Positions 29,126 to 36,333 of a stretch of DNA of 64,000 nt are shown piece by piece. The stretch's first letter is position 1, and each line of letters begins with the position of its first letter. The DNA lies in the sequence record OK254197.1, one strand, 5' to 3'. Under the pieces are notes generated by a model, which saw nothing but the letters and a program-made list of their open reading frames with translations, did no database searches and was not told the origin of the DNA. Source of the DNA: Escherichia phage PNJ1902. Made by a program: the position numbers and the translations under genes.

Positions 29126-29178
29126 TAGACCAAATTTAAACAAATTCAAATCTCAAACTTCATATAAGGAAGCAAATA

Positions 29179-29817
29179 ATGACTACTCGTATTTCTAAAA
29201 CTCGTGCTCTGGCAACTATCAAATCTCTGGAAGCTAAAATCCGTAAAGCTACTGAACAGCAGCTTCTGATCGCTGTTGGTGAAGGTAAGGATAAAAACCA
29301 GGTTGTAGTTGGCGCTGCAATCGAAGTAGCCGATCTGTCTACTCGTATTAAGACTGATTTCCAGTCTCTGCTGGATATGATGTCTAAGCGTGATAGTATC
29401 AAATCTGCTCTGATTAAGAGCAATGCAGAAACAATCGTTGAGATTGGTTCTCGTAAGATGACTGTTGCGGAAGCAATTGAAGCTAAGCGTTCTATGGAGC
29501 TTAAAGCTCAGCTGCTGGCTAACATGCGTAAGCAGTTCCATGCCGCTACGGTTAAGTTTAATACGCAGAAAGCACAGTTTGACGCTAAATATGAGCGTTT
29601 GCAGGATAGCATGGCTACCCGCGATAAGAAAACTTCCGAAGATGAAGTTAAAATGCAGCTCAACCTGCTGGAACTCAAGAATACTCCATTCTTGATTGAT
29701 CCGCTGGAACTGGAGAAGCTGATTAAGCAGCATGACGAGGAATACCAGGACTTTGCAACAAATGTTGACTTTGTTCTGTCCGAGTCTAACGCCTCTACCT
29801 TCATTGAAGTAGAGTAA
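29179..29817 (+). CDS. Coiled-coil hypothetical protein
   Basis: 212 aa; overlapping reverse-strand ORFs judged spurious. Confidence 0.55.
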   Translation: MTTRISKTRALATIKSLEAKIRKATEQQLLIAVGEGKDKNQVVVGAAIEVADLSTRIKTDFQSLLDMMSKRDSIKSALIKSNAETIVEIGSRKMTVAEAIEAKRSMELKAQLLANMRKQFHAATVKFNTQKAQFDAKYERLQDSMATRDKKTSEDEVKMQLNLLELKNTPFLIDPLELEKLIKQHDEEYQDFATNVDFVLSESNASTFIEVE

Positions 29818-30200
29818 TAATTTAAAAGCTAGTAAATCGGTAGACGAAAGCCTAAGCATCTTACCTCGCAGCAGCGGTTGAAATACGAGGTTAAATAAGA
29901 CCGCTGACCATACTATAAAGTATAATCTATTGGAGATTATGTTTATTACACCAGCCTTTTAAGCTGACACGTAAGAACAAAGCGTCGTTGATATTACCGA
30001 CACAACTTCAAAGATCAACATTTAAGTATGAAAGCTGAAAAGTTTAAAGAACTCAAACTTCTAAACTTCTAAAGCTAAAAGATGCAAAGTATTCGTTGAT
30101 GATTCAAACCCTAGATCAAAGGTACATGGCTCATAAGATATGGCCTGTGGCGCCTCTAGGCTGTTTATCGGTTTACTAGTTTCACAATTTAAAAATGTAT

Positions 30201-31973: not shown

Positions 31974-32047
31974 TGCCGTCCTAGTATAATTGGTATTATC
32001 AAGCCGTAACTGGTGGAAGATGTAGGTTCGAATCCTACGGTCGGTAA
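31974..32047 (+). ncRNA. tRNA-like element (degenerate)
   Basis: GTAGGTTCGAATCCTAC T-arm and 6/7 bp acceptor pairing, tRNA-sized, but no clean D or anticodon arm. Confidence 0.25.
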
Positions 32048-32657: not shown

Positions 32658-33605
32658 ATGTTTGCTACTAAAAACACTAAAGAACTGACTTATGAGCAAA
32701 AATTAATGCGTAATATCAAACGTTGGGGTATTGGGGCTGCAGTTGGTTTGGTAGGTTTAGTTCTGGCTCTTAACTCTTACACTGTTGTTCAAGACGGTAC
32801 TGTTAAAACCCAGACTTTCCTGGGTAAAGTTGACCCTAGCCCAGTATTACCCGGCTTTCATATTGTAAATCCTTTTGCTTCTTTCGATACTTTTAGTACT
32901 AAAGATATTGCTCTAAAATTAGATAAACTTCAGGTTCCTAGTCAGGATAAGTTTAAATCCACTGTTGACCTGACTGTTATGTTGCAGTTTGATGGTTCTA
33001 AGGCACCGATTAACCGTATTAATGCAGGTACTCAGGATCAAGCATTAGACAAATATGTAACTGAAAAATTACTGTCTACTATTCGTGAGTTTGGTAAGTC
33101 TGTACCTAAAGCACAAGATTTATTTGATGCTAAAATTCAGGCTCAATTGCAAACCGCAATTCAACAGGAAGTTGAAGAGTATGCACGCCCATATGGTTAC
33201 ACAGTTAAGCAGGTGTTTCTTCAGGATATTACTTTGCCACCGGTAATCATGGAACAGGTACAGAATACCAAAGTTCGTGAAGAGCAAGTTAACGCTGCGA
33301 AAGCTGAACTTGCCCGCGTTGAACAGGAAGCACAGCAAAAAGTTAAACAAGCAGAAGCAGATCGTGAAGCTCGCAACAACCAAGCTATTGCTAATGAACG
33401 TGACGCAGATGCTAAACTGTACGCAGCTAAGAAAGAAGCTGAAGCTAACGCCGCACTGCAACGTACCATTACTCCTGAGATGATTCGTTGGAAACAACTG
33501 GAAGTTGAAATGATTCGTGCTCAGAAGTATCAAGGTGGTGTACCTCAGACTGTAGTTGGCACTGGCTATGATGGTCAAATGATTATGGATATGCGTAACA
33601 AGTAA
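32658..33605 (+). CDS. SPFH/band-7 (prohibitin-like) membrane protein
   Basis: 315 aa; N-terminal TM helix, SPFH-like core, C-terminal Ala/Gln/Glu coiled coil. Confidence 0.55.
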   Translation: MFATKNTKELTYEQKLMRNIKRWGIGAAVGLVGLVLALNSYTVVQDGTVKTQTFLGKVDPSPVLPGFHIVNPFASFDTFSTKDIALKLDKLQVPSQDKFKSTVDLTVMLQFDGSKAPINRINAGTQDQALDKYVTEKLLSTIREFGKSVPKAQDLFDAKIQAQLQTAIQQEVEEYARPYGYTVKQVFLQDITLPPVIMEQVQNTKVREEQVNAAKAELARVEQEAQQKVKQAEADREARNNQAIANERDADAKLYAAKKEAEANAALQRTITPEMIRWKQLEVEMIRAQKYQGGVPQTVVGTGYDGQMIMDMRNK

Positions 33606-33630
33606 TAGTTACACGTAATCTTCGAACTAA

Positions 33631-33662
33631 GCCCGCGTTTTCTCCGAGAGCGCGGGCTTTTC
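33631..33662 (+). terminator. Intrinsic terminator
   Basis: GCCCGCG...CGCGGGC hairpin + TTTT. Confidence 0.7.
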
Positions 33663-33683
33663 TGTATTTAAGGCAAAAGAAAA

Positions 33684-33712
33684 AGCCCCTAAGTCTTTCG
33701 ACTAGGGGCTTT
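33684..33712. terminator. Bidirectional hairpin terminator candidate
   Basis: AGCCCCTAAG...CTAGGGGCT flanked by A-run upstream and T downstream; lies between convergent genes. Confidence 0.5.
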
Positions 33713-33929
33713 ACTGTTTGGTTCTTTAGAACCATATACTCTTGTTACAGCAACCACCCATACGGGAGGCCAATCTTGACTGAAAATCTACTCTAGGGGG
33801 CAGGATAAGAGTAGGCTTAAAGGCAAACGGATTGAACGCCGGTATTTGCGTAAACATTGCTGGAGAGCAACAACGTGCTACAGGCATTGGGCAGCACGAA
33901 ACAGATTTTCTGCAACACATAATTCCTCC

Positions 33930-34346
33930 TTAGGAGTTATTACCACCATTTTGAGCTTTTGCAACTTGGCTTTGGCAGAAGCTATTAAACTTACCCATAA
34001 GTGATACAAGCTGCTTCCCATCCTCTGTCTTTGCGAAGTCTTCGAAAAGGGCTAGTACTGCCTGTCCTTCCGCAGAAACCTGCGGTTGTTGGGTTTGTTG
34101 CTGAACTTGCTGCTGCGGCATCTGTTGCTGCATTTGTTGGGGCATTTGCGACTGCCCGCTCATTTGCTGCATCATTTGCATAGGACTCACACTTCCAGGG
34201 TTTTGCTGGAGTTGTTGCTGCATCTGTTGCGCTTCTGCTAAACGCTGTTGCAATTGTTGTAAGTAGGGGTTATCCAGACCCGGAATGGGCTGCTGGGAGC
34301 CCATACTTTGATTAAGTCCGTTATTTACAAAACCATATTTACTCAT
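33930..34346 (-). CDS. Gln-rich low-complexity protein
   Basis: 138 aa; long Q/M-rich repeats. Confidence 0.45.
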   Translation of the reverse strand: MSKYGFVNNGLNQSMGSQQPIPGLDNPYLQQLQQRLAEAQQMQQQLQQNPGSVSPMQMMQQMSGQSQMPQQMQQQMPQQQVQQQTQQPQVSAEGQAVLALFEDFAKTEDGKQLVSLMGKFNSFCQSQVAKAQNGGNNS

Positions 34347-34367
34347 AATGGGCTCCTCCCCTTAATA

Positions 34368-35354
34368 TTAAGCCGGCAGTTTAGCCTGCAGACCAGCCAG
34401 AGTCTGAGTGATAGCACCAAGACTTAAAGCGATTTGATTAATTACCTGACCGTTAGCACCACTACCCGCAGCGATTGCTTCACGTAGGCGACATGCGTCT
34501 AACTCGTCCTGGATACGTGCAGTAGTTACACCAGCGATCGCAGTCTGAAGTTCACAGCAACATTCAGCGATCTGACGTTCCAGAGAGTTCTGGTTAGCAC
34601 ACATCTGAGCCTGAACAGCGGCAAACTGGTTATTAGTTTGTAAAGTCTGCTGGAAAGCGATCTGTGCAGAATCAAACTTATCTTGTGCACGAGCTATCTG
34701 GTTAGCTGCGAAAGATTGATCAATCTGGCGAGAAAGATCGAACTGACCCTGAATAACGTTGCGAGTTTCCTGGCAGATCTGATTAGACAGATTAGCACCT
34801 GTACCATAGATCGTAGTTAGTACAGACTGAGTATCACGGCTCTGGTTTTGGGATGTCTGGCTAAAACCATTGTTAACTGCGCTTAAAACAGCCCCAGTAC
34901 CCTGGTTAGCTTCTGTACGAGTAGTGTTAATAGCTGCTAGAATACTAGCGGTATCTTGATTCTGAAGTACTGCATCAACTGCGCTACCATCACCAACTAC
35001 ACCACGTCCACCGAATCCACCGAAACCACCGAATCCGCCTGTTAATAGAGCACCGATTAGGATAGCTCCGAATAGTCCCATACCTTCACCACCGAAAGCA
35101 CCTGCGTTTGCTGGGTAACCACCTAGTAGGCCAGGGAAGCCACTAGTGAATACGTTTACTGGTTCTTGCATTTTATGTTTTCCATGTTTATGACAATGTT
35201 CATCATCGTCATCTTCTTCATCATCATGTTCACGATGTTTTTCTTCGTAGGCTCTGACCTTCTCCCACTTTTTCTTATCTGATTCCTCGTGACGGTGCAG
35301 TTCTGCTGCAACGCTAGCGACGGTCTCAGGACTCTTAGCTACTTCTTCTGTCAT
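34368..35354 (-). CDS. Gly-rich membrane-associated hypothetical protein
   Basis: 328 aa; acidic/His-rich N-terminus, GGFGGFGGFGG glycine-zipper segment, Q/A-rich coiled region. Confidence 0.5.
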   Translation of the reverse strand: MTEEVAKSPETVASVAAELHRHEESDKKKWEKVRAYEEKHREHDDEEDDDDEHCHKHGKHKMQEPVNVFTSGFPGLLGGYPANAGAFGGEGMGLFGAILIGALLTGGFGGFGGFGGRGVVGDGSAVDAVLQNQDTASILAAINTTRTEANQGTGAVLSAVNNGFSQTSQNQSRDTQSVLTTIYGTGANLSNQICQETRNVIQGQFDLSRQIDQSFAANQIARAQDKFDSAQIAFQQTLQTNNQFAAVQAQMCANQNSLERQIAECCCELQTAIAGVTTARIQDELDACRLREAIAAGSGANGQVINQIALSLGAITQTLAGLQAKLPA

Positions 35355-35419
35355 TTTTTAACACCTCCTAGTATATAGAAAATGTGTGTCTCTTTGATCA
35401 CTCATCCATAACATATACT

Positions 35420-35447
35420 TTACACTACCCCAACAAAAATGTCAAGG
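35420..35447 (-). promoter_or_regulatory. Putative sigma70 promoter
   Basis: RC: TTGACA-17-TAAAGT. Confidence 0.35.
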
Positions 35448-35561
35448 GGTCTTTAAAAATTGCCCCCGGATTTTTAGTGGGGTCACAAATTTTGGTCCTC
35501 ACCACTTATCTGCTACCCTTAAGTGCCCTATGATTTTCCTCTAAAAAGTTAAAAATTTTGA

Positions 35562-35590
35562 TTGCTTGAATGCTAAATTCTCTGTATAAT
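35562..35590 (+). promoter_or_regulatory. sigma70 promoter (T5 early type)
   Basis: TTGCTT-17-TATAAT + ATAAATTTGAGAGAGG leader. Confidence 0.7.
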
Positions 35591-35620
35591 ATATCTATAA
35601 ATTTGAGAGAGGAATAAGAT

Positions 35621-36139
35621 ATGAATGTTGATGAGCTAACACAGCACCTCTTATCTAGAGGATTTGATACAGATAAATATCATTGCTGGTTAAGCCCGGA
35701 AGGGTGGCTAACAGTCCCATTGTATGACTTCTCTGGGATGTTGCGGGGCTATCAGACGTATAATCCTTCTGCTCCAAAAGGGCATGGTAAGTGCCCCTTT
35801 GAGGCTAAATATTTTACCTACTCCACTACACAGTGTGTATGGGGACTAGAAACTCTCAATGGAGATGAAAAAGTAGTATTGATTGCTGAATCTGTATTTA
35901 AGGCAGTTGCATTACATAATGCTGGTTATCCAGCCCTAGCAATGTTGGGTTCTACCCCAGGAAAAGCGTTATTAAAGCAACTGAAATTACTACCTTTTAA
36001 ATTGGTAGCTGTCGGGGATAATGATCCTGCGGGTGAAAAATTTGCTAGAAAATTGAACGGCTTTGTTTCTCCTGTAGATGTGGATGAGATGTCTACCGAA
36101 AACTTGAAAAATTTTCTTGCTATGAAGCTAAATTTCTAA
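35621..36139 (+). CDS. Toprim-domain protein
   Basis: 172 aa; conserved Glu (LIAES) and DxD (GDNDPAG). Confidence 0.5.
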   Translation: MNVDELTQHLLSRGFDTDKYHCWLSPEGWLTVPLYDFSGMLRGYQTYNPSAPKGHGKCPFEAKYFTYSTTQCVWGLETLNGDEKVVLIAESVFKAVALHNAGYPALAMLGSTPGKALLKQLKLLPFKLVAVGDNDPAGEKFARKLNGFVSPVDVDEMSTENLKNFLAMKLNF

Positions 36140-36255: not shown

Positions 36256-36333
36256 GGTTCTCAAGCTCATATGGTATGAGCACCCGGCTCATAACCGGAA
36301 GGTACGTAGGTTCGAATCCTCGGGGAGCCACCA
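36256..36333 (+). tRNA. tRNA with CAU anticodon (Met/Ile2), tentative
   Basis: Acceptor GGTTCTC/GGGAGCC (2 GU), loop CTCATAA, TTCGAAT T-loop with weak 3-bp T-stem. Confidence 0.45.

Follow-up and report, generated by a model that had tools for sequence, protein, structure and literature searches.

A dispensable three-gene operon of T5-like phages encodes a putatively membrane-anchored protein with a long predicted helix and a conserved cysteine triplet

Escherichia phage PNJ1902 (sequence record OK254197.1), of which a stretch of 64,000 nucleotides (nt; hereafter the window) was analyzed, carries three small genes in tandem on the minus (-) strand, within a block of genes on the plus (+) strand. 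The source phage is T5-like (Demerecviridae, Markadamsvirinae): over positions 33600-35700, its identity to Salmonella phage WP85 and Escherichia phage fp01 is 98.5%, and matches to the region occur in 410 phage records. It is well supported that the three genes, referred to here as genes 1, 2, and 3 and together as the cassette, form an autonomous, dispensable early operon for one putatively membrane-anchored long-helix protein and two small proteins. We further propose, with the chances for and against about evenly balanced, that the cassette is a self-contained accessory operon that is transcribed against the surrounding early genes from the promoter P12 and gives the phage a conditional advantage at the cell envelope. 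The features of the locus are listed below, with positions in the window.

35417..35445, (-) strand: sigma-70-type promoter, TTGACA-17 nt-TAAAGT, with an A/T-rich upstream element (promoter scan)
35355..35416, (-) strand: 5' untranslated region (UTR) with the Shine-Dalgarno site AGGAGGTG, invariant among close relatives
34368..35354, (-) strand: gene 1, 328 amino acids (aa), orthologue of T5.077, phrog_8119
35172..35231, (-) strand: low-complexity His/acid stretch EHDDEEDDDDEHCHKHGKHK, codons for aa 42-61 of gene 1
35007..35084, (-) strand: Gly-zipper hydrophobic, putative transmembrane segment GMGLFGAILIGALLTGGFGGFGGFGG, codons for aa 91-116 of gene 1
34380..34952, (-) strand: continuous predicted alpha-helix of gene 1, aa ~135-325, ~190 residues, ~28.6 nm
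34554..34562, (-) strand: codons TGT TGC TGT of the gene 1 Cys triplet (C265-C267), invariant in a 16-sequence alignment
33930..34346, (-) strand: gene 2, 138 aa, orthologue of T5.078, phrog_7894
33726..33920, (-) strand: gene 3, 64 aa, orthologue of T5.079, which is a singleton in PHROGs
33671..33713, both strands: intrinsic terminator hairpin AGCCCCTAAGTC-TTTC-GACTAGGGGCT (from the sequence and the "bidirectional terminator ter1" of T5 and BF23)

Identity and layout of the locus

The cassette is already known as T5.077-079, which are annotated as hypothetical and have been deposited in hundreds of genomes. Gene 1 matches the profile of phrog_8119 (E 1.7e-203, residues 1-328) and gene 2 that of phrog_7894 (E 2.7e-80, residues 1-138), both over their full length. 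In the T5 reference record the unit appears as T5.077, T5.078, and T5.079, preceded by promoter P12 and followed by an "efficient bidirectional rho-independent terminator"; a major single-strand nick is annotated a short way past that terminator. The record of BF23 has the same layout, with open reading frames (ORFs) of 326, 138, and 64 aa, P12, ter1, and the nick site. In both phages gene 3 directly follows the T5.078 orthologue and ends at ter1, as coding sequence (CDS) T5.079 in T5 and as "ORF 64aa" in BF23. Gene order, orientation, the flanking SPFH and Toprim genes, the positions of promoter and terminator, and the nick consensus are all the same in these phages, and the place of gene 1 between the SPFH and Toprim/NadR genes is syntenic with T5, BF23, SP15, STG2, and SpoonbillGilly. 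Protein identity to T5 is ~79-89% for gene 1, 96% for gene 2, and 100% for gene 3, and the differences from the T5 cassette are allelic only, with a differing His/acid tract, differences in part of the helix, and a 12-nt gap. A full-text literature search for the names T5.077, T5.078, and T5.079 found no paper on them, and the published paper on the T5 pre-early genes does not cover the locus.

Within the cassette, gaps of 21 nt separate gene 1 from gene 2 and 9 nt gene 2 from gene 3. As a unit, the cassette converges on the (+) strand SPFH gene (32658-33605) on one side, and on the other it diverges from the Toprim gene (35621-36139), also on the (+) strand. An earlier description made from the DNA alone (the sequence-only reading) had placed the 328-aa and 138-aa ORFs exactly where they are found here. 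It had called the pair convergent, which is incorrect, as the genes lie in tandem; its statement that no other minus-strand genes occur between 19 and 63 kb is approximately correct, except that it missed the third gene at 33726-33920. Its promoter candidate at 35420-35447 coincides with the TTGACA-17-TAAAGT element (35445->35417, (-) strand), which is P12, and the comparison with T5 annotations that it had recommended settles the identity of the locus as T5.077-T5.078-T5.079 with P12 and the bidirectional terminator. Two additional minus-strand frames annotated in WP85 look spurious. The CDS at 29146-29859 has no match, and the overlapping (+) ORF 29179-29817 matches phrog_1491 at 7e-81; a 50-aa ORF at 33583-33735 (-), considered as a fourth gene, runs through both terminator hairpins.

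The promoter of the cassette occupies the place of P12 in the T5 and BF23 annotations, where it is annotated as early. The 127 nt upstream of the gene 1 ATG are 98% identical across six phages whose coding DNA is only 77-92% identical, and a TTGACA-17-TA(A/G)AGT architecture is also present upstream of distant gene 1 orthologues (~43% protein identity) in the contigs L004 and L005. RNA structure in the 5' UTR was not significant (z = -1.0). All three genes have strong Shine-Dalgarno sites of the AGGAGG type, that of gene 3 being a perfect AAGGAGG. In the cassette transcript, the terminator hairpin (~33684-33710, also predicted at the transcript 3' end) is followed by the U-run UUUUUCUUUU, and a second hairpin at 33629-33659 (+) terminates the convergent SPFH gene. 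An Rfam scan gave only weak sub-threshold matches at the terminator hairpins. The SPFH terminator hairpin also contains GA/GCGC at ~33648-33653, which is only a match to the consensus of the T5 nick site (Pu^GCGC). The annotations of T5 and BF23 have their major single-strand interruption (32.6% nick) at this position.

Coding status and dispensability

Comparison among relatives indicates that genes 1-3 are real genes under purifying selection and not chance ORFs. The ratio of nonsynonymous to synonymous substitution rates (dN/dS), calculated by the Nei-Gojobori method, is 0.15-0.19 for gene 1, 0.11-0.27 for gene 2, and 0-0.5 for gene 3. The conclusion follows from these ratios below 1 together with the Shine-Dalgarno sites, the full-length PHROG matches of genes 1 and 2, the conserved promoter, and intact orthologues of the cassette, which are present in about 220 phage records and also in distant phages whose synonymous sites have diverged to saturation. 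At the DNA level, gene 3 is the most conserved part of the cassette (91-98% identical; dS versus T5 of ~0.07, compared with 0.46 for gene 1), and it has been left unannotated in many deposited genomes.

The cassette is dispensable, as shown by a knock-down screen, viable deletion phages, and its absence from about half of the relatives. For the CRISPRi-ART screen of T5, supplementary files 8 and 16 (PMC11879866) give the score "Not Fit" and the annotation "unknown function" for T5.077, T5.078, and T5.079. Azam et al. (bioRxiv 10.1101/2023.03.15.532788; Nat Commun 2024, PMC11555353) describe the viable phages SP15m and T5n as having spontaneously lost a ~8-kb tRNA-rich region, called an "anti-defense island" in the preprint, and they cloned this region as nine fragments. 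The primers given for fragment F9 (PMC11555353) match window positions 35324-35354(-) and 33930-33961(+) exactly; F9 therefore comprises genes 1 and 2 without gene 3 and lies inside the ~8-kb deletion.

The gene 1 protein and its superfamily

The gene 1 protein consists, in order, of a charged N-terminal domain, the Gly-zipper hydrophobic segment, and one long helix that carries the Cys triplet. Alignments and structure prediction point to the Gly-zipper segment, the ~190-residue helix, and the Cys triplet as the conserved features of the protein, and not the low-complexity stretches. The N-terminal domain, of ~90 residues, has a conserved ELxxHExxDKK helix and a conserved MQEPVNVF motif, and the whole protein has a net charge of -15. 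In the alignment, the His/acid stretch is hypervariable: some relatives have HHYHHHHHEHYEEDDEDDEE... with up to about eight consecutive His, and in distant orthologues it is short, acidic, and devoid of His. The Gly-zipper segment has a Kyte-Doolittle 19-residue maximum of 1.72 at residue 94 and is kept in orthologues down to ~40% identity, with G91, G93, G107, G110, and G112 invariant in the 16-sequence alignment.

The helix was modeled with AlphaFold2 (AF2). For a C-terminal construct of 212 aa and a 116-sequence superfamily alignment, AF2 predicted a helix over residues 19-209 of the construct with a mean predicted local distance difference test score (pLDDT) of 90.4; the full-length protein with 16 sequences gave a pLDDT of 47 and was unusable. 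The helix region is rich in N, Q, A, S, and T (residues 121-328 are 16% A and 14% Q), and its hydrophobic periodicity is 3.6-3.7. The Cys triplet lies within the motif Q-[LIM]-A-[ED]-C-C-C-[ED]-x-[KR] (the CCC motif), and in the local heptad register the three Cys occupy positions d, e, and f. A Foldseek search of the PDB with the helix model returned 0 matches, as expected because the model is a single helix. No Pfam or NCBIfam family was found for gene 1; the only match, to RIFIN, was sub-threshold (15.7 bits versus a cut-off of 32). The periodicity is compatible with 11-mer helices of the apolipoprotein and late embryogenesis abundant (LEA) type, but only two distant superfamily members (P0070 and P0107) match Pfam Apolipoprotein, both below its cut-off (40.5 bits versus 90).

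An exhaustive profile search recovered 171 cluster representatives (50% identity) at E<=1e-3. This superfamily spans PHROGs 8119, 9288, and 16490, all of "unknown function", and has no Pfam, NCBIfam, or PADLOC family. The CCC motif is carried by 112 of 159 superfamily representatives, and a Gly-rich hydrophobic segment is present in 50 of these 112 CCC-bearing members, the rest being without one. The three PHROGs share a Gly-rich hydrophobic segment, an N/Q/S/T/A-rich helix, and the CCC motif. What sets the T5-type branch apart is its charged N-terminal domain and the putative partners encoded by genes 2 and 3; in other branches the neighbors are different, and some branches have CGCGC-type C-termini or no hydrophobic segment. 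Such CGCGC-type C-terminal tails occur in many superfamily members, some of them from Firmicute phages. A fixed spacing between the transmembrane segment and the Cys triplet (a "ruler") was considered and rejected, as this spacing ranges from 66 to 175 residues, though 140-160 is the commonest bin.

Members of the superfamily are found in Butyrivibrio virus Ceridwen, Aeromonas phage phiWae15, crAss-like contigs, and Edwardsiella phage eiAU, where the gene directly follows the tail genes. The downstream partner of the CCC-helix gene in Ceridwen (L010 6670-7125) encodes 151 aa of different composition. Those in eiAU and phiWae15 (L011 6541-6906 and L012 5349-5627) encode 92-121 aa, and both contain an ELVDLAAAC motif. 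A search of genome contigs with the T5-clade alignment gave only four weak matches, in metagenome-assembled genomes from the gut.

The gene 2 and gene 3 proteins

The gene 2 protein (28% Q, 8% M) has an N-terminal helix motif (YLQQLQQRL) and a variable-length Q/M/P linker, after which comes a conserved C-terminal domain, EGQAVLALFE-FAKTEDGKQLVS-GKFNSFCQS, of ~45 residues including a single conserved Cys; the protein's length among relatives ranges from 106 to 146 aa. The label "cAMP-dependent protein kinase catalytic subunit (kapc)", which appears in AY587007 and has been copied to HMD-P3, Sepoy, and others, is spurious, since gene 2 encodes only 138 aa (a kinase domain has ~250) and its best Pfam match has an E of 0.11, with no kinase among the matches.

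Gene 3 encodes a basic peptide (net +7, 12% Cys, 12% Pro) that starts with MCCRKSVSCC and contains four CC pairs, two of which are conserved among relatives. A peptide with an MCC start and at least one further CC pair also follows gene 2 in the contigs L004, L005, and L006. Neither gene 2 nor gene 3 encodes a lipobox or a hydrophobic segment able to serve as a signal peptide or anchor (Kyte-Doolittle maxima of 0.45 and 0.85, respectively). Both genes are confined to the T5-like and RSP-like clade, where they co-occur only with a T5-type gene 1.

Distribution, loss, and mobility

The cassette is present in ~215-222 of ~448 related phage records. Where it is missing, the SPFH gene lies directly beside the Toprim or NadR gene. 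The junction differs in each of three cassette-less genomes, and relics of the cassette persist in two: DaisyDussoix lacks window positions 33668-35577, HZ_ZJUN2 retains a relic of the P12 -10 region and 5' UTR, and TrudiRoth retains the terminator and the last 29 nt of gene 3. It follows from these different deletion junctions and relics that the cassette is ancestral and has been lost repeatedly. Repeated loss fits a conditionally useful accessory module.

All three genes are also found together in the distant T5-like contigs L004 and L005, in which gene 1 is only ~43% identical, and in a GC-rich, ~62-kb unrelated phage backbone, beside the terminase and portal genes (L006 5001-6601; L009, which is MK443266, "Pseudomonas phage RSP", unverified). 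In the latter group, gene 1 has an identity of 43% over its whole length and of 60% in the C-terminal half. This distribution suggests that the trio moves as a unit between unrelated phages.

With its own promoter and terminator, its presence/absence polymorphism, and its dispensability, the cassette has all the features by which morons are recognized. It resembles morons (lambda bor/lom) and the T4 imm/sp exclusion proteins as an autonomous promoter-genes-terminator unit that runs against local transcription, is dispensable and variably present, and encodes an early membrane-anchored (here putative) protein. It has no sequence or fold relation to them, however, and the three-protein make-up and the 28-nm helix are not features of the known examples.

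Proposed function and alternatives

In the mechanism that we propose, the gene 1 protein would be anchored in the inner membrane via its Gly-zipper segment and would oligomerize through the long helix, with the segment contributing, into a rod of ~28 nm. Inter-chain disulfides of the Cys triplet (heptad positions d, e, and f), or a metal bound by it, could lock this oligomer. The partners of gene 1 would be the gene 2 protein, rich in Q, and the basic gene 3 peptide, rich in Cys. The complex would act at the cell envelope early in infection and may provide a conditional advantage, for example by excluding competing phages or countering a host defense. It would not be needed for replication, assembly, or lysis.

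Several observations weigh against this proposal. The signs for topology are split: the 90-residue charged N-terminal domain argues for an N-in orientation with a periplasmic rod, whereas short acidic N-tails, an Arg just past the segment, and homologues without transmembrane segment or signal argue for a cytoplasmic rod. Whether the Cys would be oxidized or reduced depends on this topology. The helix periodicity of 3.6-3.7 fits a hendecad coiled coil and an amphipathic surface helix equally. Distant superfamily members lie in varied contexts, some behind tail or lysis genes and others near crAss ring proteins, and one function may not hold across the superfamily. Pfam, NCBIfam, and PADLOC are silent, the PADLOC scan of genes 1-3 and the SPFH neighbor having given no match. 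In the fragment study, rescue from the retrons Eco2/Eco7 is reported only for F6 (tRNA-Tyr) and F8 (ORF75/Rad) and not for F9 (PMC11555353), so the only defense function assayed gave a negative result. For Ec83, the preprint reports only protection by F7 and F8; it also describes T5n as plating less well on AVAST type 2, with the determinant unmapped there (bioRxiv 10.1101/2023.03.15.532788).

The cysteines could alternatively belong to a metal-handling complex at the membrane, with a soft metalloid or a metal such as Zn, Cu(I), or Ni bound by the His/acid tract of gene 1, its d-e-f Cys triplet, and the CC pairs of the gene 3 peptide. MerT and ArsD are examples of proteins whose vicinal Cys pairs bind soft metals. 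The His-rich acidic N-terminal tracts, with up to about eight consecutive His in some relatives, the invariant CCC motif, the four CC pairs of gene 3, the conserved Cys of gene 2, and the CGCGC-type tails of many superfamily members are all compatible with such a complex. However, His is absent from distant orthologues, where only the acidity is kept, only two of the gene 3 CC pairs are conserved, and there is no match to a metal-binding family. A lytic phage also has no obvious need for metal handling, and there is no known phenotype. We consider this explanation unlikely.

An accessory role in envelope fusion or lysis is, in our judgment, quite unlikely. The gene 1 protein would in that case be spanin-like or similar to a class I fusion protein, its Gly-rich segment and coiled coil spanning the periplasm and disturbing or fusing membranes, with Cys disulfides as in the i-spanin Rz. 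Gene 1 indeed encodes a hydrophobic Gly-rich segment and then a predicted helix with conserved Cys inside it, whose ~28 nm come close to the width of the periplasm, and the best matches of a PDB profile search are to influenza HA2, which combines a fusion peptide with a helix. Gene 1 also contains the hexamer GLFGAI, which corresponds to the beginning of the HA2 fusion peptide. The HA2 match is insignificant, however (full E 0.013, domain E 2.6), and the sequence and fold searches gave no significant similarity to an HA2-like class I fusion protein. HA2 and gene 1 share a Gly-rich hydrophobic peptide directly before a long coiled-coil (in gene 1 putative) helix, whereas the phage segment is internal, behind the 90-residue N-terminal domain, and the resemblance is an analogy at most.

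The comparison with Rz/Rz1 has a similar outcome. Likenesses are the single (putative) anchor, the long helical domain with conserved Cys, and a small Pro/Cys-rich gene in the same operon; gene 3, in contrast, has no lipoprotein signal, the cassette lies outside the lysis cassette and is not required, and there is no sequence similarity. A spanin pair was rejected, as no outer-membrane lipoprotein partner is encoded (genes 2 and 3 have neither a hydrophobic N-terminus nor a lipobox) and the dispensable cassette sits in the early tRNA region. Its annotated early promoter and its distance from the lysis genes also speak against a lysis role, as do the lack of a fitness cost on knock-down and the absence of the cassette from half of the T5-like phages, which are viable isolates.

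The sequence-only reading had emphasized composition and had likened the proteins to membrane-active or condensate-forming ones. The features that it described (the EHDDEEDDDDEHCHKHGKHK stretch, the GGFGGFGGFGG run, the Q/A-rich C-terminal part of gene 1, and the Q/M-rich gene 2) are all present. It had not picked up the ~190-residue helix, the CCC motif, the conserved C-terminal domain of gene 2, or the gene for the MCC peptide. Composition alone could be thought to make these proteins toxic, by disrupting membranes or by forming prion-like, Q-rich condensates: gene 2 is 28% Q with a Q/M/P tract, and gene 1 has Gly-rich and Q/A/N-rich regions. However, the low-complexity tracts are the most variable parts of the proteins, and selection is seen on specific motifs (the context of the CCC motif, the C-terminal domain of gene 2, and ELxxHExxDKK). 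Activity at the membrane is a reasonable expectation for the 328-aa protein, which has one Gly-zipper segment. The low-complexity features that had been stressed are the least conserved; nothing supports condensate formation, and the Q/M tract is a variable-length linker. Toxicity in E. coli had been suggested as a check. Azam et al. placed genes 1 and 2 under an arabinose-inducible promoter and expressed them in E. coli, and the available part of the paper mentions no toxicity (PMC11555353). Gross toxicity is unlikely because E. coli tolerated both the cloning and the arabinose-driven expression, and we consider a composition-driven toxic function improbable.

Gene 1 is very unlikely to encode a virion-associated ejection or pilot protein, whose hydrophobic segment and long helices would form a DNA-entry channel as in phiX174 H or the podovirus ejection proteins. 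Its composition resembles that of pilot proteins with a Gly zipper and coiled coil, and distant members lie beside tail genes (eiAU gp08) or near crAss-like ring proteins. The cassette, however, belongs to the early tRNA region, its promoter is annotated as early, and it is dispensable and absent from half of the relatives; to our knowledge its products are not among the published T5 virion proteins. Finally, the idea that the ORFs are chance or decaying frames, to which frequent natural loss and knock-down without fitness cost might point, is refuted by the conservation pattern, with dN/dS well below 1, intact distant orthologues, strong Shine-Dalgarno sites, and a conserved promoter.

The reading of the cassette as an accessory operon with a conditional envelope advantage can be extended to the superfamily, in a form that is speculative and, with all of its parts taken together, doubtful. 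The CCC-helix proteins would then be an unrecognized phage-wide class of membrane-anchored, single-helix rods of 20-30 nm, each locked by its Cys triplet in heptad positions d, e, and f; the class would comprise three PHROGs and at least 171 clusters (50% identity) from T5-like, RSP-like, crAss-like, Edwardsiella, Aeromonas, and Firmicute phages. In the T5-like case, the rod, the Q-rich adaptor, and the MCC peptide would form an envelope conflict module that acts in superinfection exclusion or neutralizes a non-retron defense, and this module would be a candidate for the determinant of the lower plating of T5n on AVAST type 2.

Neighboring genes

The 172-aa Toprim protein encoded at 35621-36139 (+), usually annotated as "DNA primase", is the orthologue of T5.076 and of SP15 ORF75. 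The preprint reports ORF75 as the anti-retron gene "Rad", within the tRNA-rich region that it names an anti-defense island (bioRxiv 10.1101/2023.03.15.532788), and T5.076 is labeled anti-retron and anti-defense in the CRISPRi-ART supplement (PMC11879866). On the other side, 32658-33605 (+) encodes an SPFH/Band-7 membrane protein (Pfam 2.5e-17) that is annotated as "lipoprotein" and corresponds to T5.080. This gene is retained in cassette-less phages and is also "Not Fit" in CRISPRi-ART (PMC11879866).

Two tRNA-like sequences near the cassette were detected with Rfam and not reported by ARAGORN. One, at 36256-36330 (+) (40.3 bits), lies in the place of T5 tRNA-Ile2(CAU). The other, at 31975-32046 (+) (35.5 bits), lies upstream of tRNA-Arg, in the stretch of the stable "RNAX" of T5.

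Conclusions

The predicted ~28 nm helix and the invariant Cys triplet join three PHROGs of "unknown" function in one superfamily that has no Pfam model. Misleading labels can also be corrected, as gene 2 is no kinase and a real third gene is often left uncalled. Because it has been lost independently, lies beside an anti-retron gene, and is part of a spontaneously deleted region, the cassette is a sensible and cheaply testable candidate for a role in host range, exclusion, or counter-defense. If such a function were shown, it would provide a role for a widespread family of phage membrane proteins.

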